DNA of 64,000 nt from Escherichia coli (GTDB taxonomy: Bacteria; Pseudomonadota; Gammaproteobacteria; Enterobacterales; Enterobacteriaceae): NCBI RefSeq assembly GCF_030013595.1, contig NZ_CP122769.1, one strand, 5' to 3'. Positions 4,030 through 41,896 of the stretch are shown here, piece by piece. Position numbers and translations under genes: made by a program. Below the pieces are notes generated by a model that was given only the letters and a program-made list of their open reading frames with translations, was not told the origin of the DNA and did no database searches. Numbering within the stretch: position 1 is the stretch's first letter; each line of letters begins with the position of its first letter.

Positions 4030-4701
4030 ATGAATGCTATACAAAAGTTAGTTGAATCTATTCTTGTTAAAATGGGTTTTGTTGGCGCTGTAGTGGAAAA
4101 TATATATTTGGATTCAAAACCATTTCGGCATATTCGATTTGTGGCTGATATTCCAGTAATATCTTTTCTACCTCATTTGGTGAAATATCTTAAGGGTGCA
4201 GACCATCTTTACAGTGGTAACGATGATTTGCATCCTCTTTTCATTTATTTTTCCGAAGCGGCTACATTAAAAGCAGGTCCTGTAAATCTCGCGAACTTTC
4301 GTTTTGAAGTTTCTATAGCTTCAACTCATTTACGACTGGTCTCAGAGCAGCCTGATTTGCTTTTCAAAGGATTTAACCGGGATAATCTAGAATACGTTTA
4401 TTACCGCTCAGATTTGGCCTCTAGGGATCTTATACTAGGCCTTGTTGAACACGGTTCTCCTTTCATAAAACATCTACATGGACTTATACAAAAGCGAATT
4501 TTAAACGAGTTCTCTCTGATTTTTTCTGTTCTTGAAAAGATTTTAGAAAGCGCGAAGCCACAAATTCTTGCTTGCTTCCATAGTGTTGATTATGAAATGA
4601 ACGTAAAAATAATAGCCGAAGCTATACCTGAAACTGTATCTAATCAGATAGTCACATCTGATTATATAGTTAATGTTAGCGCCAATGATATAAGACTGTA
4701 A
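4030..4701 (+). CDS. hypothetical protein, paralogue family member 3; 3' end probably truncated by IS insertion
   Basis: N-terminus KLVESILVKMGF fits family; stop codon 4699-4701 abuts the IS21-family terminal inverted repeat. Confidence 0.5.
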   Translation: MNAIQKLVESILVKMGFVGAVVENIYLDSKPFRHIRFVADIPVISFLPHLVKYLKGADHLYSGNDDLHPLFIYFSEAATLKAGPVNLANFRFEVSIASTHLRLVSEQPDLLFKGFNRDNLEYVYYRSDLASRDLILGLVEHGSPFIKHLHGLIQKRILNEFSLIFSVLEKILESAKPQILACFHSVDYEMNVKIIAEAIPETVSNQIVTSDYIVNVSANDIRL

Positions 4702-4774
4702 TTCGCCATTTGGGTTGTCCGCTCCACCCAACATGTTGTTTCCTTGAGGTTCTCACACCAGAAAGGACATCGAC

Positions 4775-6744
<1,970 letters not shown>

Positions 6745-6775
6745 TCAAATAGCGGACATTAAAAATGGCGAAAAC

Positions 6776-7080
6776 CGGCCATAAATCTTGGCGTTGACAT
6801 TAATTCTATATCAGATGCGGACAAGTTTATAAATCATGTTCGTCGCTATTTAGCAGGCAGGGTAATGAAGAGGCGGATATACGCTGAATTAGATGTTTGT
6901 GAAGAAACATCAAGTATTTCACTAGTGAACTTAGGATGCTTTACGTCTCCTCTGCTCGTTACGGAATATCAAATGTTTAAGCCACACTCTTCAGGGTTAT
7001 ATCGAAAAGCTATAAACAACTCCTTAAAACAGTTCAAACCAGAAATGCATGTACCTTCTGAAGAACTCTTTTATAATTAA
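6776..7080 (+). pseudogene. possible 3' remnant of the IS-disrupted paralogue
   Basis: Frame is open from the IS right end (6776) through ORF 6865-7080; followed by the same type of hairpin as other family members. Confidence 0.3.
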
Positions 7081-9795: not shown

Positions 9796-10386
9796 ATGAT
9801 TGGAGAAAGTATTTTTGACTGGGTAATTTACGGAATATCCATTTTGATATTTGCCTCAGCACTAATTGAAGGAAAGACAACTCGCTACCCAGCACTTTTT
9901 TTCTATGGGAGTTTAATTTTAATGTTAATCCTGATAGTTGCTGGAGGCCTTAACTGGTGGTTCTACAGGTCAAAATATGGCGCAGTAATCGTTATCTTCA
10001 CAGTGGTTTCTTTACTGATGACTCGATTCCGCCTGGTCATATATAAATTAAGATTAAGAAAGTTAGTTTCAGAGATCAGATTTCGTATAAAAACGGGTTT
10101 TCGTATAATTCTTGTTTTGTCGGATAATGAGGATGAGCGTAATGTTCTGCTGTCTATGCTTAGCAACGTATTGCCAGAGCAAACGCTTATTCACACGCGT
10201 GATGCTCTCGGACCTCATTCAGGGCCTATCCTAAAAGCTCTTGAGCTACATCATCAACAGGGAACAGGTTACATACTCGTCTGTGAACAACAAATCTCAG
10301 CGCGTACGTGGTTGAGTATCGTAGAAAATGGGAAACCTGATACATCTATAGCTGTTAATTTTCATTCGATCCCAGAAATGGAGTGA
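9796..10386 (+). CDS. hypothetical membrane protein (about 3 N-terminal TM helices)
   Basis: Hydrophobic segments ISILIFASALI, LILMLILIVAGGL, AVIVIFTVVSLL. Confidence 0.5.
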   Translation: MIGESIFDWVIYGISILIFASALIEGKTTRYPALFFYGSLILMLILIVAGGLNWWFYRSKYGAVIVIFTVVSLLMTRFRLVIYKLRLRKLVSEIRFRIKTGFRIILVLSDNEDERNVLLSMLSNVLPEQTLIHTRDALGPHSGPILKALELHHQQGTGYILVCEQQISARTWLSIVENGKPDTSIAVNFHSIPEME

Positions 10387-10393
10387 TTTTTCA

Positions 10394-10651
10394 ATGAGTA
10401 GAACCGTTTCACAAAGTGTCACAGAAGATTGTCTTTTTGATACCCGCACACAAGTCAGATTACAACTAAGTCGAAGCGTTCATAAAACGCTGGCATCTGC
10501 TAAAGAAATTTTACAGGGAAGGGGGGTTGATTCGGTCTCTATTGAAGATCTTGTGCGAGCCTGTCTTGAAGAGAACCAGCCAATTGATCTCGCCTCACTT
10601 TACCTTGAAAATCTCTTAAAACAGAAAGGTACCAGCATTTGCGATTTTTAG
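10394..10651 (+). CDS. hypothetical protein
   Basis: 85-aa ORF, 8-nt spacing from upstream gene. Confidence 0.4.
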   Translation: MSRTVSQSVTEDCLFDTRTQVRLQLSRSVHKTLASAKEILQGRGVDSVSIEDLVRACLEENQPIDLASLYLENLLKQKGTSICDF

Positions 10652-10724
10652 TGTTTTCAAACCTATTAGATAAAATGCCGGTTGTGTTTATATAACATCA
10701 ATAATTTCATGCAACAGGTAAAAC

Positions 10725-11261
10725 ATGAGTACTCAAAAGCAACTTTCCAGAACAACCGGCACTGAACGTATGTTTAAGGAAGAGCTGGCGTTATCCTTAA
10801 TTTGTTGGGTTTTCACCAGTCCATTTACCAACTGGACCGATAAAGTCTTCAGTGGTATTGAAGTTCCGTCTGAAGGACCGTCAACATTACTGGGTGAGGC
10901 TGAAAAATTCTTTCGTTTTGTCGTTAATGAAGAAGGCTACGACGCAGGAAGGGCTGCTCTTGGTCTTGACCTATGTTGTTTTTCACTTCCGTCGTGTTTG
11001 TTCCCGGACGCTGCCCTGTCTGAGGAAGAGGTTATGAGTAAGTTAACCGGAGAAGTTATCCATGGGATTCTTCTTTCCTTACCTGAATTTATTGATATGC
11101 CAGAAGTGCTCGCTTACCAGGTCAGGGATGAAATTCTTGCTTTTAACACTCGCTGTGGAGACGGGATCTTTCATGGTTGGAACACGGCTTCAGAATTGTG
11201 GAAGTTTGAAATCTTTCCCCGCACCACCATCATGATGCAGCATACTTCGGCAATACATTAA
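10725..11261 (+). CDS. hypothetical protein
   Basis: 178-aa ORF. Confidence 0.45.
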   Translation: MSTQKQLSRTTGTERMFKEELALSLICWVFTSPFTNWTDKVFSGIEVPSEGPSTLLGEAEKFFRFVVNEEGYDAGRAALGLDLCCFSLPSCLFPDAALSEEEVMSKLTGEVIHGILLSLPEFIDMPEVLAYQVRDEILAFNTRCGDGIFHGWNTASELWKFEIFPRTTIMMQHTSAIH

Positions 11262-11277
11262 AATTAGGCGGGGCAGA

Positions 11278-11724
11278 ATGCATAAAAAACTTTTTCTTCT
11301 CGAATGGAAACCCTGTCAGAGCCGCGTATGGGCCGGTTGGATGGCCCTGTGGTTGACTATCAGTTTTCTGATGTTATCTGCCTTGCTTATGACAGATCAT
11401 CTCCTGAACAAAGTCATCCTGCCGCCAACATGGTTGTTGATCTGGTTTTCGCCAATGCTGGGGTTTTTGATAAAAGTTCGCGTCGTCGAAACTCAACATT
11501 TCCTGGAGCATGACCTCTGTGTTGCAGGTTTCTCTTTTTACCGCTGGAAGAGGTTAGTTTCTCCCGGGCTTTGGTCAGTTGACTGTATAAATGGTCGTTT
11601 TCGCCTCAATCGGATCACCCAGGTGGGTAAGACTATCCACTATCCATGGCGTCTCCATTATCATCCTTTGTTCATGAGCCCTATCGAACATAAATCGCAT
11701 GCTGTGAAAGCTGTTTCAAAATGA
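11278..11724 (+). CDS. hypothetical membrane protein
   Basis: Hydrophobic N-terminal half (WMALWLTISFLMLSALLM). Confidence 0.4.
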   Translation: MHKKLFLLEWKPCQSRVWAGWMALWLTISFLMLSALLMTDHLLNKVILPPTWLLIWFSPMLGFLIKVRVVETQHFLEHDLCVAGFSFYRWKRLVSPGLWSVDCINGRFRLNRITQVGKTIHYPWRLHYHPLFMSPIEHKSHAVKAVSK

Positions 11725-15888: not shown

Positions 15889-17001
15889 TTGAATCATTAT
15901 CAAAAACGGGGTGCAGCCATGCGTAAGAGTTATACATTTGGTATTCCATTTGGACTCCAGCGTGAATCAGGACTCTTTTTAGATATTACAGAGGTCAGCC
16001 GGGGTATTGACTGTAACTGCATCTGCCCCGCTTGCAAAACTGATCTGTTAGCAAAGCAGGGGGAGGTCAAGCTTTGGCATTTCTCACACAGTACAGCTGT
16101 AGCCGGTGACTGTGATGGTCTGATGGAAGCCATCCGGGGAAAGATTATTGAAGTCATCAACGAGCACCAGGTTCTTGGTTTCCCAAATCTTCTCGCTGGC
16201 GACGATGGTGGGCCGGTTTCACTGAATGAGGTTAGTGGAAGCGGCAGTATGTTCGGAGGCACAGCTGATCTGTTCGTAAAGGTTAATGATTTATGTGTGG
16301 CCGTCTTTCTGGACAGGGATCGCAGCATTTCAGAGAAGTTAACCTTTGACCATCTTCATCCTTCCGAAAGAGTTGCCGCATTGCGTATCGATCTTCCTGA
16401 TATTGAATATGAAATCAGTCAGGTGCAGCTCGGGCGACGTAAAACAACATACAGTGAGTGCATTGAAAGCCTGATCATTGATGAGACCAGTTCCCGGGAA
16501 TGGCTATATCATCCATTAATGCATGAACTTGAATCTGAACCTCTTCAGGAGTATCGGGGACGGGAGCCTTCAGAGGAAGGGCCTCTTCTTCAGCGCCTTG
16601 CTGACTGTAAGATGAAATTGCCTGATATCCTTCCGGGCAGTCATAACGCGCTAGTCAGGTTACAGCAGGATACGATTGTATGTCTGTGTCGGTTAACGGT
16701 TCGGGCTTATGACATCGCTCAGACCGATGAATTTCCTTTGTTCCTTCGCTATTTCAGGTTGCACTGCCTGGAAAACAGCGAACATGTCAGTTACGAAAGA
16801 CTGATCTGCTGGCAGGAAATGATTTCAAAAACCCAGGAAGGCCAGTCCTTGACACAAAACGAACTTGAATATCTTCATGAGATTGTCCGCATCGCCTTTT
16901 ACAATCACCGGCTTAACAATGTCAGTATTTCAGATGTTAAAAACCATGACACTGGAAAGAAGAGCGGCAGGGTAGAGTCACAAAACTATTCACTTTTATA
17001 A
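15889..17001 (+). CDS. hypothetical protein with CoiA-like N-terminal zinc-finger/nuclease-type motif
   Basis: CNCICPACKTDLLAKQGEVKLWHFSH resembles the CoiA-family C-P-x-C ... HFxH motif. Confidence 0.4.
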   Translation: MNHYQKRGAAMRKSYTFGIPFGLQRESGLFLDITEVSRGIDCNCICPACKTDLLAKQGEVKLWHFSHSTAVAGDCDGLMEAIRGKIIEVINEHQVLGFPNLLAGDDGGPVSLNEVSGSGSMFGGTADLFVKVNDLCVAVFLDRDRSISEKLTFDHLHPSERVAALRIDLPDIEYEISQVQLGRRKTTYSECIESLIIDETSSREWLYHPLMHELESEPLQEYRGREPSEEGPLLQRLADCKMKLPDILPGSHNALVRLQQDTIVCLCRLTVRAYDIAQTDEFPLFLRYFRLHCLENSEHVSYERLICWQEMISKTQEGQSLTQNELEYLHEIVRIAFYNHRLNNVSISDVKNHDTGKKSGRVESQNYSLL

Positions 17002-17167: not shown

Positions 17168-18721
17168 TTAGTTTTCAACTAACTGAACGACGACCAGCCT
17201 GCCGCCTTCCTCCTTTGACAGAACAAACTGAGCGTTATTCGTCAGTTCAATTTTTTCCCCAATGGCAATCTGTCGTTTATCCGGTAATGACATAAGCCCA
17301 TTTATGCCTTCATTTACTAACCACCACTGATCGTTATGGAAAACAAAATACCCAACTCGTTTCCTTTGTGCATCGGTTGTGCGCTCATTTGGCGCAATGA
17401 GGCGATTCACATGCCACGCATAGATTGACTGCCCGCTCCACACCATCAACCGGTGGTCGTCAGGACGATAACTGCCTTCCTTTCGGGATGAATATAAATT
17501 TAGAACCGGTAATTTACCCTTGTATGGCGTACCGCAGTAGGGACAAACCGGCTTTGTCTTACCTGAGAAAACGTACCATTTCTGTTCACACGCCTTGTTC
17601 TGGCAGGGCTGTATCAGATCGACTGTTTTAACCAGGGCACTTTCCCACTCATCGGCGGTCGGGCGTTTATTGGCATCGTGTAAGCCATCAATAAAGGCGC
17701 GTTCAAACAAAGGCGTCAAATAAGGGCCCATGATGGTGTAAGGAATTTTCTCCGGGTCAGCCCAGGGCAGTGAAAAGGAGGATATCTGACTGACTTTGAC
17801 TGCATTGCTTTTGTCTGTCGGATGTTCAATGAAGAGTGCCTTCTCACCCATAGATAAGGTCTCATCACGTACTTCATCCGACATGTCATGTATTTTTCCG
17901 CCACGTAGCGGATGACGGAAGAACAGATACATGTAGATAAGCACCGACAGCGCATGACGGTCAGTAGAAATGCTTGGCAATACGCGGTTCGGATCCTCTT
18001 TGGAAAGATGGCTGGTTTTCACCACTTCCGGAGCGATAAAATCCGGGGTGCCCACGACGTCGGGAGGATACTTTCCAGGGACAACCAGGCCGTCTACGTC
18101 AATGATGCAGGCATGTCCCATTTCTGGATCGATAAGCACGTTTTTATAGCTTAGATCGCTGTGACAGAGACCTGCCGCATGCATCCTTCTGACGGCTCTT
18201 GTTAGCAGCAGACAGACCTTGAGATAGGTAAGCGTATTGCCTCGTTCACGTGGGTCGAGAAATTTATTCTGGTTGCTGGCGCTGGCAAACCATTTGCCTT
18301 CCTTTTCACGGCCTTTTATGCCAAGAAAATCATCGTTTTTAGAGCCGTATTTAAAGAAAAAGTAGCTTTTGTAGGTTGGAACCACGATGCCGATTTTATC
18401 CCCATGCTCAACAACGTGGGTCGGCCAGCAAAACAGGTCCTTCCAGTATTCACCTCCGGACTGGCCAAAAATGTTTTGCCTGTAGCGTCCGGTGATCATA
18501 TCAATCCGATCCCGGGCCTGCTCGTTCTGCGGTTTATGATAAAAAGCGACGACGTATGATTTATCAGGCGAGAAGTAAACATCCTTCATCGAGCCCGAAC
18601 CAATTACCTCGTCAACATACTGGACTGTTTCGCCGTCCTTTGTTTTGCACGTAACAATATTTGCCATATTGATCACCGAAGAAGCGTATCCCTTACCACA
18701 ACACCGCAATAGTGCGGTCAT
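17168..18721 (-). CDS. Ser/Thr protein kinase with C-terminal zinc ribbon and FHA-like domain (ter-linked)
   Basis: Catalytic loop HSDLSYKNVLI, DVDG (DFG-like), GTPDFIAPE; CQNKACEQ..CPYCG zinc ribbon; WWLVNEGINGL FHA-like; alternative start at 18667 (MANIVT) avoids overlap with phosphatase gene. Confidence 0.8.
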   Translation of the reverse strand: MTALLRCCGKGYASSVINMANIVTCKTKDGETVQYVDEVIGSGSMKDVYFSPDKSYVVAFYHKPQNEQARDRIDMITGRYRQNIFGQSGGEYWKDLFCWPTHVVEHGDKIGIVVPTYKSYFFFKYGSKNDDFLGIKGREKEGKWFASASNQNKFLDPRERGNTLTYLKVCLLLTRAVRRMHAAGLCHSDLSYKNVLIDPEMGHACIIDVDGLVVPGKYPPDVVGTPDFIAPEVVKTSHLSKEDPNRVLPSISTDRHALSVLIYMYLFFRHPLRGGKIHDMSDEVRDETLSMGEKALFIEHPTDKSNAVKVSQISSFSLPWADPEKIPYTIMGPYLTPLFERAFIDGLHDANKRPTADEWESALVKTVDLIQPCQNKACEQKWYVFSGKTKPVCPYCGTPYKGKLPVLNLYSSRKEGSYRPDDHRLMVWSGQSIYAWHVNRLIAPNERTTDAQRKRVGYFVFHNDQWWLVNEGINGLMSLPDKRQIAIGEKIELTNNAQFVLSKEEGGRLVVVQLVEN

Positions 18722-20333
18722 CGTGGTTCCCTGTGGAGAAAAAGTTAAGCCAGTCGCCTAACCTCTCAGGCGCAATACTGGCGTCTGTAAGGACAGGGAT
18801 GAGCTCATCAAGGAGACGGGTCCATTTTTCGTCACTGCGAAGCCCGTTATCTGTCTCAAACAGAGGGTCTGATACGCCATCTGTCATGAGGATCAAGTGA
18901 GATACATCATTCCATTTACCCACGCTGATGCGGCCGCTAAACGAGGGGTCTGCGATAATGCTCTGGTCAAGAAAGCGGGTTTGTCCTGCGTATTCTCCGC
19001 TATCGGGATTTCCCAGTATCCTGACTTTACCGGAAGGGCTGTATGCACCTATCGCACCATCACCAAGCCAGAATGCAGCCGCAAACAGCTCGTTATCAGT
19101 TCGTAGCGCTACAGTTGCCAGTAGGGTTGTTGAATAGGATTTCACAGGTTGTTCTGCACAAATGGCTTCGTTCTGGATACTGTTGACCGCGAGCGTAGCT
19201 GCCTGTTTAAAATGATGAAGCATGGCGTTTATGGTTGCCTGCTGATCGCTCCCTTCCCACGCCGTGATGTGCTGCTTTAGATGGACGCCTTTCAAACCAC
19301 TGAGCTGATTGAAAAGGTAATCGCCAGCCGTTTGGACTGCAATCCGGGAGCCTTCCCGGGAATTTACCGCACTACCGGCCCCGTCTGCGACCAGCATGAC
19401 AGACCATCCTGTTTCCTGGCAGTGGTTGATATAGAAGTCGTCATCTCTGAAGCTCCCGGCATGCTCATGAGATCGTCCCCGGCGACTGGCGGCAGCAATA
19501 CGTATGTCACCCCTGACCAGGCCAGCAGCGTCCAGATGGGACTTAGGGTAGGAAGCGTCTGCTGGTGGCTCTACCACCTTCCACAGGCTTCTCGGATCGG
19601 GATTGACTATAAAAAGCTGTTTTGTTTCGCATTCGTCGTGCGAAGCGCATGACCAGAGTACTGAAAGCTCTATATCGCCGCTTTCGGTGGGTGTACCTGT
19701 CAGCAACTTATGCTCTTTGTCAAAGGTCAGGCCAATGTTCCTGGGAAAGACAACGTCCCTGACAGTAGCCTGCTGGCCCTCATCCAGAACTATAGCAACC
19801 GGCGAAGAGAAACGTTCGCCTGCGCGGGCGTTGGGAATAACTATTTTAGCTCTCGGGGGAACGGCAGGTGGCACAGCTAATCCGGCCCGCTGCTGGCCTG
19901 TCGGTATCTGCCCGGGTTTTAATACCAGGGAAGACAGGTTTTCGTCTTCCCTCTGTGCTGGTTTATCAAATTCGTAATAAGGCATCAGCTTCCAGAACGG
20001 AGGATGAGGTTCATTTTCTGGCAGGGGTTGCAGTAATGGTGTATCGGTAGCGTCAATGCCCGGGTTATCAGCATCACTTACGACCGTTTGTTGCTGATCG
20101 GAAAGGCTGGATGCTGACGAGGGGGCGATCTCTGCGTCGTTATAACCTTCGCTAACCCGCGCAGATAAACCCTGTGCAAGGCTCTCAATCCGCTCTTTAA
20201 GCCGCATAATCTCTTCAGTAAGGGAAGGGTCGTGCGATAGAAGAAAAAGCCGCTCACCTTCTACAGGGTGGCCCAGCTCAGACAGCACTAAGCGGATAAT
20301 CTTCTCTTCAAGTAAAACATTTTGCGACATCAA
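18693..20333 (-). CDS. PP2C-family Ser/Thr protein phosphatase (ter-linked)
   Basis: PP2C motifs RRGRSHEHAGSFRDDDF, VADGAGSA, LILMTDGVSD. Confidence 0.8.
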   Translation of the reverse strand: MMSQNVLLEEKIIRLVLSELGHPVEGERLFLLSHDPSLTEEIMRLKERIESLAQGLSARVSEGYNDAEIAPSSASSLSDQQQTVVSDADNPGIDATDTPLLQPLPENEPHPPFWKLMPYYEFDKPAQREDENLSSLVLKPGQIPTGQQRAGLAVPPAVPPRAKIVIPNARAGERFSSPVAIVLDEGQQATVRDVVFPRNIGLTFDKEHKLLTGTPTESGDIELSVLWSCASHDECETKQLFIVNPDPRSLWKVVEPPADASYPKSHLDAAGLVRGDIRIAAASRRGRSHEHAGSFRDDDFYINHCQETGWSVMLVADGAGSAVNSREGSRIAVQTAGDYLFNQLSGLKGVHLKQHITAWEGSDQQATINAMLHHFKQAATLAVNSIQNEAICAEQPVKSYSTTLLATVALRTDNELFAAAFWLGDGAIGAYSPSGKVRILGNPDSGEYAGQTRFLDQSIIADPSFSGRISVGKWNDVSHLILMTDGVSDPLFETDNGLRSDEKWTRLLDELIPVLTDASIAPERLGDWLNFFSTGNHDDRTIAVLW

Positions 20334-21370
20334 CCTCTCCCTCTGTTTACGTCGAAGTTAGTGTTTCCGCCATCATTGCTGAATGACAGACCTGTTTCAC
20401 ACCACGGGCAGATCACGTCATCCGGGCCGTCAATGCACAGCAATTTTCCGCATGAGCACAGGGCAAACGCACTGGCATTACCGCAGTGAGGGCAACCCGG
20501 TACGCCATGCAGTTCGCTGGTGTTTACCTGCAAACCGGTAGCGGTGGCATCTGACCATGCAAAATAGTCCTCATCGATGGGATAGCATCCGGCAATATTA
20601 AAGCTGTTCAGGTTCAGGCTGAAATCGAGCCCGGAAATCCTTGCTGGTGGCCGTTCATACTTCATCAGATACGGACGACGGGTCTTGCTGCAACGGCCGG
20701 TAAGCGTAACGCAGTTTTCGTCGTACGCTTTTACTGGCTCGTCCTTGGCCAGCCGGACTATGTATTCAGTCTGGCTGAGCTCAGGTTGTTTGTCGTCTCC
20801 GACGCTGCGGCTGTGCGCCGTAACCGAGGCTGTGATCCATTTGATGAAGCGGGTAAAGTCCCCTTCCTGAGACTCGGTGAACAGCATGACATTCTCTGTC
20901 AGTTGCCGCAGGGTATTCAGGTCCGCTGACGGCCCCAGGCCAACGGCAATGAGATTCACTTTACTCGCGTAGTGATCCTTCCAGCGCTTCACTTCTGCGG
21001 TTGTGTCGTCAGTCGGACGTCCGTCGGTAAGGAGATACACGACGGGTTTCCAGTCGCCTTTAGCCTCATGAGTGGTTTTTCTGACCTGGGTATCAATTTG
21101 TACGGTCAGCTCACGCAATGCGGCCCCAAGGCTCGTACCGCCGCCAACGGGAAGGCGGGGAGGGTAGAACGAGGCAATTTCGTGAAGAGGTACAATCGTA
21201 CGGGCTACACCGGCAAATGCGATTACCGAAACCCAGGCTGTTTCAAGTGCGTGTGGATCCTTTCTTAAATCTCCGATGATCATTTGCAGACCATCAGTCA
21301 TTTTTTTCAGGTTTTCACCAATCATGGACTCTGAACAGTCCAGGACAAAAAACACGGGAAGGCGTCTCAT
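20330..21370 (-). CDS. TerY-like vWA domain protein with C-terminal zinc ribbon
   Basis: MRRLPVFFVLDCSESM (vWA MIDAS motif) ... CPHCGNASAFALCSCGKLLC..CPWC; start assigned to internal ATG (21370) by analogy with the other TerY paralogues. Confidence 0.75.
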   Translation of the reverse strand: MRRLPVFFVLDCSESMIGENLKKMTDGLQMIIGDLRKDPHALETAWVSVIAFAGVARTIVPLHEIASFYPPRLPVGGGTSLGAALRELTVQIDTQVRKTTHEAKGDWKPVVYLLTDGRPTDDTTAEVKRWKDHYASKVNLIAVGLGPSADLNTLRQLTENVMLFTESQEGDFTRFIKWITASVTAHSRSVGDDKQPELSQTEYIVRLAKDEPVKAYDENCVTLTGRCSKTRRPYLMKYERPPARISGLDFSLNLNSFNIAGCYPIDEDYFAWSDATATGLQVNTSELHGVPGCPHCGNASAFALCSCGKLLCIDGPDDVICPWCETGLSFSNDGGNTNFDVNRGRG

Positions 21371-21455
21371 AATTTTCCTCGTACGGCTGGTACGGCCAGC
21401 AGAAAACGTTGCTGTACAGAAAGGTGCTGCCCGGAAAGCAGCACCTTTCTGTCTG

Positions 21456-22097
21456 TCAGAGCACCAGCTGGATTTCTGGTGGAGGAGGGGGAAGGGTATC
21501 AGTTCCGTTATTGATCCCCGCGCTTGTGCTGCCGGAAGACACGCTGGCCGATACCCATTTAAAGAAACCTGCAAACGCGGTTGAATCTAGCGTCTCCAGA
21601 GACACAACCTTATCGGTGAGCTGTTTTAAGTGCTCATGGCCTGCTTTAGGACCAACGGCGCAGGCAATGATGGATCCGAATCCCCGGCCGCGAATCGCTT
21701 TTACCGCTTCACCGTACGCCAGGGCATCAGAAGGGGTTCCATCAGTCATCAGGAATACCAGAGGACGCCAGTCTCCTTTTGTATCACCATCTGAGCGACG
21801 TACATCCCGTTCAACACACTGCATCAGACATTCAAGGGCAGCACCGGTGAACGTCCCGCCTGCGCTTGGCACAACGATGTCAGAAAACTGGAAGTCTTCC
21901 AGCGGCGTGAGAGGAATGAACTCACGCGCCTCATTGTCATAGGTGATAATGGAGATATGAACGCTTTCGAGGGCGTAGGGATCCTGGCGAAGAGCGCTAA
22001 GCATCGCCTGAATTCCAACGTTAACGGAATGGATGGACTCACCGCGCATCGAGCCGGATGTGTCGATAACAAGGTAAACAGGCAGGCGGCGCATCAC
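21456..22097 (-). CDS. terY: TerY (vWA domain) tellurite-resistance-associated protein
   Basis: MRRLPVYLVIDTSGSM MIDAS motif; 213 aa. Confidence 0.85.
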   Translation of the reverse strand: MMRRLPVYLVIDTSGSMRGESIHSVNVGIQAMLSALRQDPYALESVHISIITYDNEAREFIPLTPLEDFQFSDIVVPSAGGTFTGAALECLMQCVERDVRRSDGDTKGDWRPLVFLMTDGTPSDALAYGEAVKAIRGRGFGSIIACAVGPKAGHEHLKQLTDKVVSLETLDSTAFAGFFKWVSASVSSGSTSAGINNGTDTLPPPPPEIQLVL

Positions 22098-22735
22098 ATG
22101 TAATTCCTCAGGTGCGAGACAAACGAATCTGATTCTGAAGGCTCACCAATTGCCCTGAGTTTCCAGCCTGTAGCCTCGCGTATCAGCTCGGCAAAAACCA
22201 TGGAGCGCTGGCTGGCGAAGGCGGGTCCGCCAGAAAGATCGAATCGTGCCATTTCAATATTACGGGCATCTACTGCCCGGATGAAGGCATTCTGAACTTT
22301 ACCAAAGTGCTGCTGGAGCTTTTCACCATTGTAGATCTGAACGATGAACACAATTTTCTCGTACTGAGCGTCAAGGGAATTCAGGCGCACAATAATTTGC
22401 TCATCGTCACCATCACCGGCTCCGGTTCGGTTATCGCCCGTCAGCCAGATATTTCCTGACTTATGGCGAAGGCTGTTGAAAAAGATGATATCGCCATTCA
22501 CAAGCGTTGGTTTACCATTTTCCACATTGCCGAGATCGGTCACCTTTCCGGCTGAATTACACAGGAAAGCGATCACATCAAGGTCGTATTCTTCTTCTTT
22601 TTTACCAAAGATCCCGCCGAGGAAACCTTTCTTTTCCTCATTAATATCCCAACCCAGGCCGATAGTAACGGACGAGAGATCGTATTCATTTTTTTTCAGG
22701 CTTACGCCCTGGCCTTTGCTCAGACTGACAGACAT
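22094..22735 (-). CDS. terX: TerX (TerD-family) protein
   Basis: TerD-domain signature GDNRTGAGDGDDEQI; 213 aa. Confidence 0.85.
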   Translation of the reverse strand: MSVSLSKGQGVSLKKNEYDLSSVTIGLGWDINEEKKGFLGGIFGKKEEEYDLDVIAFLCNSAGKVTDLGNVENGKPTLVNGDIIFFNSLRHKSGNIWLTGDNRTGAGDGDDEQIIVRLNSLDAQYEKIVFIVQIYNGEKLQQHFGKVQNAFIRAVDARNIEMARFDLSGGPAFASQRSMVFAELIREATGWKLRAIGEPSESDSFVSHLRNYM

Positions 22736-22757: not shown

Positions 22758-23396
22758 TTATAAGACCACGTTTACTTCTGGCGGCGGCGGTGGCAGGTCT
22801 TCAAGACCGATCACTTCTTTTTTGCTGGACTCCACTTTCTGACTGCCTACCGAAATGCTCGCACTGACCCATTTAAAGAAAGCTTTAATCGTCGAACTGT
22901 CAGCTGTATCGAGCTGAACCACGATTTCAGTGATTTCTTTGAGGACGCTGGTATCGGCATCATGCCCGGCTGCACATGCCACAACAACGCCGGTTCTGGC
23001 CGCTTTAAAGTCATTCAGGCCTTTACGCCAGTCATCATTCGGACTTCCATCCGTCATCAGGAATACAAGGGGACGCCAGTCACCTTTAGTGTCAGCCGTC
23101 GTTTTCTGTACTTCTTTGGCAATGGAGCTGGCCGTCAGGGTAAGCGCTGCGCCAAGAGAGGTGGTGCCGCTGGCTGTTAGTGCTGGCATCTGGAAACTCA
23201 GGAGGTCTGTCAGGGGGACTGCCTGTCGGGCTGAAGAATCAAAGGTGATCACTGACACGTAAGCCGTTTCGAGTGCATACGGATCCTGTTTCAGCGTGGT
23301 AAGCAGCGTCTGAACGCCATTCTTAACCGCTTCGATAGGCTCTCCGTGCATAGAGCCGGACGTGTCGAGTAGCAGATATACGGGTAAGCGTCTCAA
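22758..23396 (-). CDS. terY: TerY (vWA domain) protein; probable TTG start
   Basis: LRRLPVYLLLDTSGSM; TTG at 23396 preceded by aaggaa RBS gives an N-terminus like the paralogues (the ATG-based ORF extends to 23477). Confidence 0.75.
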   Translation of the reverse strand: MRRLPVYLLLDTSGSMHGEPIEAVKNGVQTLLTTLKQDPYALETAYVSVITFDSSARQAVPLTDLLSFQMPALTASGTTSLGAALTLTASSIAKEVQKTTADTKGDWRPLVFLMTDGSPNDDWRKGLNDFKAARTGVVVACAAGHDADTSVLKEITEIVVQLDTADSSTIKAFFKWVSASISVGSQKVESSKKEVIGLEDLPPPPPEVNVVL

Positions 23397-41689: not shown

Positions 41690-41896
41690 ATGACTGAAGA
41701 ACAAAAAAGAATAGAGCGGGCTATTGAGTTGGCTTGTCGTTACGGCGGAACCGATGAAATGCATCATCTGCAATGGGTCGTGGATCAGATGGTAAGAGAA
41801 CTTGCTGGAGAACGTTATGCACAGATTGTAGCTGATGCCACCAGCGGAGAAGATGGGCCTGATACTTACAAATGGAGTGTTGGGATCGCGCCTTAA
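41690..41896 (+). CDS. small hypothetical protein
   Basis: 68-aa ORF. Confidence 0.3.
   Translation: MTEEQKRIERAIELACRYGGTDEMHHLQWVVDQMVRELAGERYAQIVADATSGEDGPDTYKWSVGIAP

Follow-up and report, generated by a model that had tools for sequence, protein, structure and literature searches.

Three co-directional genes at positions 17168-21370 of the analysed window (the whole 64,000-nucleotide stretch of Escherichia coli DNA) constitute a TerY-phosphorylation (TerY-P) triad located at the distal end of the ter cluster of an IncHI2 plasmid. The triad comprises a Ser/Thr protein kinase, a PP2C phosphatase and TerY3, a protein with a von Willebrand factor A (vWA) domain. Nothing about this module, which is already known and sits in a plasmid backbone that is very common, amounts to a novel type of system: its description dates from 2012, an anti-phage activity of relatives was demonstrated in 2020, and hundreds of public records carry annotations of the sequence. 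The small additions reported here, useful for the design of mutants, are an FHA domain behind the kinase zinc ribbon, the lysine K28 in the kinase glycine loop, TerY_C as a clade marker and a fast-evolving phosphatase. All three genes are encoded on the minus strand, and their boundaries coincide with the coding sequences (CDSs) of an identical plasmid in RefSeq, in agreement with a first-pass annotation of the window, which had placed three co-directional genes here:

17168..18667, minus strand: Ser/Thr protein kinase, 499 amino acids (aa), with catalytic domain, zinc ribbon and FHA-like domain; open reading frame (ORF), RefSeq CDS and Pfam Pkinase match
18693..20330, minus strand: PP2C (PPM) phosphatase, 545 aa, with variable N-terminus, immunoglobulin (Ig)-like domain and catalytic domain; Pfam PP2C_2 match
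20330..21370, minus strand: TerY3, 346 aa, with vWA domain (aa 6-160) and Cys-rich TerY_C domain (aa 217-346); Pfam VWA and TerY_C matches

The TerY-P triad was defined as the combination of TerY, a Ser/Thr kinase and a PP2C phosphatase (PMC4978471); the kinase was described as fused to a zinc ribbon, and the module was connected with tellurite resistance and hypothesised to be a phosphorylation switch that senses metals (PMC11090510, which cites Anantharaman et al. 2012, Mol Biosyst 8:3142). In the window, the vWA, PP2C and kinase genes are co-directional, the kinase carries a zinc ribbon and Ter genes are associated. As far as the original description is reproduced in these two sources, the same three genes occur in the same order with the same C-terminal zinc ribbon on the kinase, and are linked in the same way to TerD and TerY genes and to the PRTase, ATP-grasp, HpcH and StiP genes for nucleoside-like metabolites; the window exemplifies that description and does not differ from it in any essential respect. 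The ter cluster context and the published definition together uphold the first-pass assignment of the genes to a ter-linked phospho-signalling module. The summaries of the triad given in PMC11090510 and PMC4978471 do not mention the FHA fold, the relocated lysine or the Ig-like domain of the phosphatase.

Distribution and Ter linkage of the triad

The window derives from a conjugative plasmid of the IncHI2 (R478-like) type. The region compared with public sequences was a 4.4-kb stretch containing the triad, which is present at at least 99% identity in 733 PLSDB plasmids from Escherichia, Enterobacter, Salmonella, Klebsiella and others; it is 100% identical over its full length among the PLSDB matches listed, and the matched plasmids are mostly typed as conjugative. 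A matching plasmid examined in detail, which is identical over the stretch and annotated in RefSeq, is typed as IncHI2A. At least 80% of the stretch is retained in one piece in 1,201 of the 1,298 matching plasmids, and among 5,426 complete E. coli genomes it was detected in 337, on plasmids at 294 places and on chromosomes (e.g. in O104:H4) at 56. Many deposited plasmids match the stretch at 100% identity, and the pattern is therefore not due to chance. The RefSeq product names on the identical plasmid are TerY-C domain protein, PP2C and kinase for the triad, and TerD-family, VWA, terW and terZ/terC/terD for its flanks. Among IncHI2 multidrug and mcr-1 plasmids, as in pathogenic E. coli and Klebsiella, ter clusters are very frequent (the Klebsiella cluster was written as terY-CYXYW-ZABCDEF in a 2025 paper, PMC12054061), and their roles in relation to tellurite, phage, colicin, oxidative stress and zinc are under debate. 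The kinase/phosphatase/vWA triad is the sole obvious signalling element of the cluster and hence a reasonable experimental entry point.

For the analysis of genomic context, one genome per species (GTDB) was scanned with an alignment of the full-length kinase, and the 10-kb flanks of the kinase matches were annotated by phmmer using the proteins of the window as queries. Counts were made for the 27 species in which kinase identity reached at least 49% and the available upstream sequence 6 kb or more; these species include gamma-, beta- and alpha-proteobacteria, Bacteroidota and Cloacimonetes. A PP2C gene is adjacent to the kinase gene in all 27 species, a vWA protein with TerY_C is found in 26, and TerD-family genes lie within 10 kb in 25; the gene order is always (TerD)(vWA)n - vWA/TerY_C - PP2C - kinase. 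By contrast, neither TerY_C nor TerD (0/7 each) was detected around the seven more distant relatives, with 32-44% kinase identity, from Firmicutes, Verrucomicrobia, Chloroflexi, Gemmatimonas and Thiomargarita, six of which show the vWA-PP2C-kinase trio by itself. TerY_C is therefore a marker of the Ter-linked clade, which includes the window.

Rates of divergence differ among the components. Over 30 Ter-linked loci, the kinase is the most conserved protein (median identity 59%; about 60% between Enterobacteria and Chitinophaga), followed by TerX (55%), TerY2 (51%), the TerY3 vWA domain (50%), TerY_C (40%) and the PP2C catalytic domain (38%), which is the least conserved. In the close enterobacterial relatives (loci L009-L011), identity amounts to 86-88% for the kinase and 82-90% for TerY3, to 64-66% for the PP2C catalytic domain and to 37-38% for the PP2C N-terminus. 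By these alignments, the phosphatase is the fastest-evolving component of the triad.

Domain architecture of the triad proteins

The three segments of the kinase are located as follows:

17615..18667, minus strand: kinase catalytic domain (aa 1-351), with a Lys in the Gly loop (K28) and no beta3 Lys
17522..17614, minus strand: zinc ribbon (aa 352-382; C355, C360, C375, C378), from invariant Cys and an AlphaFold2 model
17171..17521, minus strand: divergent FHA-fold domain (aa 383-499)

Pfam Pkinase matches the protein partially (residues 169-287, E 1e-9), in a segment that aligns to PKA and PknG. The motifs H169-S-D171-L-S-x-x-N176, D190-V-D192-G and A212-P-E214 are conserved in 75-89 of 90 diverse homologues. 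The canonical beta3 (VAIK) lysine is absent from the corresponding segment V39-V40-A41-F-Y; the glycine loop, G23-S-G25-S-M-K28-D-V-Y, has a lysine at the position of the third glycine, which is present in 71 of the 90 homologues (on the minus strand, the codon of K28 lies at 18584-18586 and that of A41 at 18545-18547). K28 and K41 are mutually exclusive over approximately 150 homologues: relatives that lack K28 but have an intact catalytic loop possess Gly at position 28 and Lys at position 41. Members of the Ter-linked clade and the stand-alone relatives nearest to it use K28, and distant bacterial and archaeal relatives the canonical K41. The catalytic lysine has thus likely moved into the glycine loop, with K28 as its likely counterpart, and the kinase is predicted to be catalytically competent. 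The alternative that the protein is a pseudokinase owing to its missing beta3 lysine was rejected on the basis of this mutual exclusivity and of the intact catalytic loop. The first-pass annotation had made its reading of the module depend on the presence of catalytic residues in an alignment; a naive alignment does lack the beta3 lysine, yet K28 replaces it, and the reading stands.

Eukaryotic WNK (“with no lysine”) kinases likewise have no lysine in beta3; their catalytic lysine occupies the place of the third Gly in the GxGxxG loop (beta2), and the WNK1 glycine loop GRGSFKTVY is the counterpart of GSGSMK28DVY. The two families are not evolutionarily related; the relocation in the bacterial family would be independent, and chloride sensing is not implied. 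As a separate observation, a second, tandem kinase paralogue occurs in several relatives (at 10001-11452 of locus L008, and also in L026, L040 and L055). In L008, this second kinase has lost K28, has a degenerate catalytic loop and is probably a pseudokinase; it adjoins a PIF1-type helicase gene and an AIM24 gene within the TerD/TerY array.

The tail of the kinase conforms to the first-pass proposal of a C-terminal zinc ribbon and an FHA-like domain. The four cysteines of the ribbon are invariant in 27 kinase homologues. An AlphaFold2 model of residues 340-499, built from 53 diverse homologues, reached a mean predicted local distance difference test score (pLDDT) of 95.9 and contains a zinc-ribbon-like pair of beta-hairpin knuckles (pLDDT >90) ahead of an FHA beta-sandwich fold. 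The FHA fold was detected by structure, and no sequence profile finds it: Pfam FHA (PF00498) gave no match to the kinase even at E<=10. Among the 53 homologues, His419 is kept in 49 and the loop Asn452 in 48; the position three residues before the His is Tyr, Phe or His, not Ser, and Gly412 is without a conserved Arg next to it, where these equivalences are taken from the sequence pattern and not from superposition. Because the usual Arg and Ser ligands of phosphothreonine appear to be missing, phosphothreonine binding by this domain is not to be assumed.

The phosphatase, described in the first pass as a PP2C enzyme with a long N-terminal extension, has exactly this layout: Pfam PP2C_2 matches at E 1.8e-46 over 209 of 209 model positions, after an extension of about 284 aa. 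In a set of 42 homologues, its metal-binding Asp motifs RDDD, ADGAGS, GDG, TDGVSD and HDDRT show conservation of at least 90%. Within the extension, a variable, partly low-complexity N-terminus precedes an Ig-like domain:

19596..19853, minus strand: Ig-like (He_PIG / cadherin-like) domain, approximately aa 160-245 of the phosphatase; phmmer, Pfam in a homologue, and motif

This domain is invisible to Pfam in the phosphatase of the window itself. Its identification rests on a phmmer match to the cadherin-like modules of SraP (4m03, E 3.9e-5), on a homologous phosphatase (P0386) that carries PF05345 (He_PIG), and on the conserved motif L.GTPTESGD.

For TerY3, matches to Pfam VWA (E 3e-13) and TerY_C (PF15616, E 4.5e-53) confirm the TerY-like vWA protein with a Cys-rich C-terminus that had been proposed, and the TerY_C domain possesses eight conserved Cys. 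The residues of the metal-ion-dependent adhesion site (MIDAS), D11-x-S13-x-S15, T79 and D116, are invariant in TerY3 and in its two paralogues TerY1 and TerY2 encoded upstream, and are conserved in 33 TerY3 homologues; the vWA domains of the three paralogues are 38-41% identical. TerY1 and TerY2 share a proline-rich C-terminal tail, LPPPPPE(I/V)x(L/V)VL, at the place taken by the TerY_C domain in TerY3; this tail may be a short docking motif.

Relation to known systems and possible role of the triad

Several systems combine the same enzymes. The TerY-P system of Gao et al. 2020 is active against T7-like phages (PMC7699616), and a TerY-P variant from P. aeruginosa protects against Autographiviridae, with the cells surviving (bioRxiv 2022.08.12.503731). 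In the validated anti-phage TerY-P-like modules, the kinase has an OB fold in place of the zinc ribbon (PMC11090510). The three-gene logic of vWA protein, PP2C and Ser/Thr kinase (STK), and presumably the phospho-switch, is shared with the system of Gao et al. 2020; that system, however, forms stand-alone cassettes with a C-terminal OB fold on the kinase, whereas the genes in the window are embedded among ter genes, TerY3 contains TerY_C, and the C-terminus of the kinase holds a zinc ribbon and an FHA fold but no OB fold. The hidden Markov models (HMMs) of PADLOC gave no match to the vWA and PP2C proteins even at E<=10, and at the same threshold the kinase matched generic kinase models alone (mad6, PD-T4-6, MkoA); the library includes STK_OB, which we infer from its name to be the model of the Gao 2020 TerY-P kinase, and this model was unmatched. 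One STK_OB match, of 12.9 bits, was obtained for a distant stand-alone kinase. PADLOC returned nothing relevant for TerY1, TerY2 and TerX, for E. coli K-12 YegI, PphC and YegL, or for the triads of four other loci, and NCBIfam gave only sub-threshold partial matches to the triad proteins (lanthionine synthetase kinase domains, cobaltochelatase vWA). The first-pass comparison with the TerY-P anti-phage system thus holds for gene content but does not extend to the defence models or to an OB-fold kinase. The triad may accordingly be regarded as a ter-linked TerY-P member that lies outside the validated defence family and may work in a similar way.

The E. coli K-12 locus YegI-PphC/YegK-YegL encodes the same enzyme trio, and a CxxC motif follows the kinase C-lobe in both cases. 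The proteins are distant relatives (YegL vWA 29%, PphC PP2C 25% and YegI kinase 21% identical to those of the window); YegI has 648 aa and a different C-terminal region, PphC lacks the N-terminal extension, YegL lacks TerY_C, and the locus contains no Ter genes and has yegJ between its genes. The TerY-P triads of CoCoNuT systems (type II / III-A, McrBC-like) have the same make-up of vWA, PP2C and STK with zinc ribbon, but are linked to McrBC-like GTPase and HEPN nuclease genes and not to TerD/TerC genes (PMC11090510). In comparison with actinobacterial Ser/Thr protein kinase (STPK), PstP (PP2C) and FHA signalling (PknB/PknG-GarA), the FHA domain in the window is fused to the kinase and appears to be without the canonical Arg/Ser ligands, with a vWA protein as the partner.

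We consider it fairly probable that the triad works inside the Ter system as a phospho-switch. Together, kinase and phosphatase would form a reversible Ser/Thr phosphorylation switch, whose partners would be the TerY vWA proteins and, through them, the TerD-family proteins or the Ter complex. TerY3, with its metal-dependent MIDAS site and its Cys-rich, probably Zn-binding TerY_C domain, and with its presumed translational coupling to the phosphatase, could act as an adaptor or a sensor. Using its WNK-style lysine, the kinase would phosphorylate a partner or itself, while its tail of zinc ribbon and FHA domain would tether it to a partner, possibly in a phospho-dependent manner. The phosphatase would reset the state, and its targeting may involve the Ig-like domain and the fast-evolving N-terminus. 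As no toxic or nucleolytic effector is evident among the products of the triad, its output would be modulation of the Ter stress-response machinery rather than the action of an autonomous effector.

Several points weigh against this proposal. The switch mechanism as a whole is inferred, and phospho-dependent docking through the FHA domain is uncertain. According to PMC12054061, which cites Whelan 1995, transposon insertions mapped the phenotypes of R478 to terZ, terC and terD, and partly terA, and not to the triad. The strong hairpin between terY2 and terY3 described below implies that the triad is possibly expressed differently from terY1-X-Y2. In addition, natural disruptions exist: the kinase gene of the Salmonella plasmid p77_84_18 (L088, NZ_MZ666126.1 150065-157680) is split by an mcr-1.1/pap2 cassette, and IS100 (istA/istB) interrupts the region in the E. 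coli ETEC1706 plasmid NZ_CP122916.1. Plasmid carriage thus does not depend on the kinase, whose loss alone is evidently not toxic.

An alternative is that the triad is an autonomous TerY-P-type anti-phage system. It would sense infection (e.g. by T7-like phages), use phosphorylation to block it without involvement of the other ter genes, and account in part for the “Phi” phenotype known historically from IncHI2 plasmids. Its gene content of vWA, PP2C and STK is that of validated TerY-P (PMC7699616; bioRxiv 2022.08.12.503731), IncHI2 ter clusters confer phage inhibition (PMC12054061), distant relatives of the kinase sit in bare vWA-PP2C-kinase cassettes, and the much faster evolution of the phosphatase compared with the kinase (38% versus 59% median identity) is compatible with an arms race. 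This alternative nevertheless appears unlikely: the PADLOC defence HMMs, STK_OB included, were unmatched at E<=10, the kinase tail is of the zinc ribbon and FHA type and not OB, the triad hardly ever stands alone in its clade (TerD in 25 and TerY_C in 26 of the 27 species), conservation of the kinase across phyla is unusually high if it is compared with defence genes (about 60% between Enterobacteria and Chitinophaga), and, as related in PMC12054061, the phage inhibition of R478 was mapped to terZ/C/D. We regard as similarly doubtful the more ambitious possibility that the Ter-linked triad is an infection- or stress-sensing arm, in which the fast-evolving phosphatase, with its variable N-terminus and Ig-like domain, is the sensor, and in which it gates TerD/TerC together with the lysine-relocated kinase and its non-canonical FHA domain, so that a part of the phage inhibition by IncHI2 plasmids is explained; if true, the lysine relocation and the cryptic FHA domain would define an unrecognised mechanistic subclass of bacterial Hanks-type kinases.

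Two further explanations give the triad a protective role or none at all. It could be a safety regulator that belongs to the “protective region” of R478 (terW/terX/terY) and, rather than sensing external signals, keeps the membrane-active TerZ/A/B/C/D proteins non-toxic until stress occurs. The triad contains no effector domain of its own and follows immediately after terW-terY1-terX-terY2, with all genes oriented alike, and the terW/X/Y region is reported to protect E. coli from ter cluster toxicity. The persistence of plasmids in which the kinase gene is disrupted and the ter cluster is otherwise intact indicates, however, that the kinase is not needed against toxicity, and in some relatives (e.g. 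locus L004) the TerD-TerY-triad array occurs without terZABC nearby; we thus consider this role distinctly improbable. Least of all do we expect the triad to be hitch-hiking, functionally decaying backbone cargo with no current role, to which only the occasional mcr-1/pap2 and IS100 insertions would point, since no reading frame of the triad is broken in the window, at least 80% of the stretch is kept in 1,201 of 1,298 plasmids, all catalytic motifs are kept, gene order and content are conserved across phyla, and translation of TerY3 and the phosphatase appears to be coupled. The phospho-switch within the Ter system remains the explanation that we prefer.

Operon structure and plasmid setting

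The view of the three genes as a triad holds in so far as they adjoin, but they are not self-contained: they form the tail of a co-directional six-gene array, terY1-terX-terY2-terY3-PP2C-kinase, whose other features are the following:

21416..21452, minus strand: 17-bp perfect hairpin in the terY2-terY3 spacer; RNA fold
21456..22094, minus strand: TerY2, stand-alone vWA paralogue; RefSeq VWA protein, intact MIDAS, 38% identity to the TerY3 vWA domain
22094..22735, minus strand: TerX, TerD-family protein; RefSeq annotation and ORF
22758..23396, minus strand: TerY1, stand-alone vWA paralogue and probable first gene of the array; ORF, RefSeq and paralogue comparison

Upstream of terY1 are located terW, a gene for a DUF4236 protein and the HpcH, StiP, PRTase and ATP-grasp genes, with terZABCDE divergent. 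The TerY3 stop codon and the PP2C start codon share one nucleotide (TGATG), with GGGAGAGG just before, and this overlap suggests that the two genes are translationally coupled; the gap between the PP2C and kinase genes is 25 nucleotides (nt). A longer ORF for the kinase, extending to 18721, was rejected, as the homologues begin at the Met at 18667.

In a simple scan, no intrinsic terminator was predicted on the coding (minus) strand inside the triad; a few weak terminator-like sites are on the opposite strand, and the total count of sites is not above that of shuffled sequence. A terminator-like hairpin with a T-run follows terW (23848-23825), just upstream of terY1, and the transcription unit therefore probably begins before terY1. 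A simple promoter scan of the minus strand upstream of terY1 found no sigma-70 consensus, a result that is uninformative. The hairpin at 21416-21452 has a 3-nt loop and a folding energy of -41.9 kcal/mol (z -3.6), with none of 200 shuffled sequences as stable, and is not followed by a T-run. Rfam detected no RNA family over the whole window, and the hairpin matches no known element. At the same position, Enterobacter sp. BIGb0383 (L009) and Serratia silvae (L010) have non-homologous terminator-like hairpins with T-runs, and in other relatives the terY2-terY3 spacer is just 13-39 nt. The hairpin may be a partial terminator or attenuator, or an element of mRNA processing or stability.

Further observations concern the plasmid surrounding the array. 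Relative to plasmid pP136-1, the window contains a 2.1-kb insertion at 4675-6799 with the IS21-family genes istA (4775-5947) and istB (5944-6744), which are IS100-like. At about position 41860, the window is without the segment of approximately 13 kb with IS26, mph(B) and a Tn21-type mer region that comes after a HipA-family toxin-antitoxin pair in pP136-1, and the backbone continues straight into the gene preceding the HNH endonuclease genes. Directly downstream of the kinase gene and convergent with it, a 370-aa hypothetical protein (WP_001232449) is encoded at 15889-17001 on the plus strand; it has a Cys-rich N-terminal motif, CNCICPAC...WHFSH, and is conserved along with the plasmid backbone.

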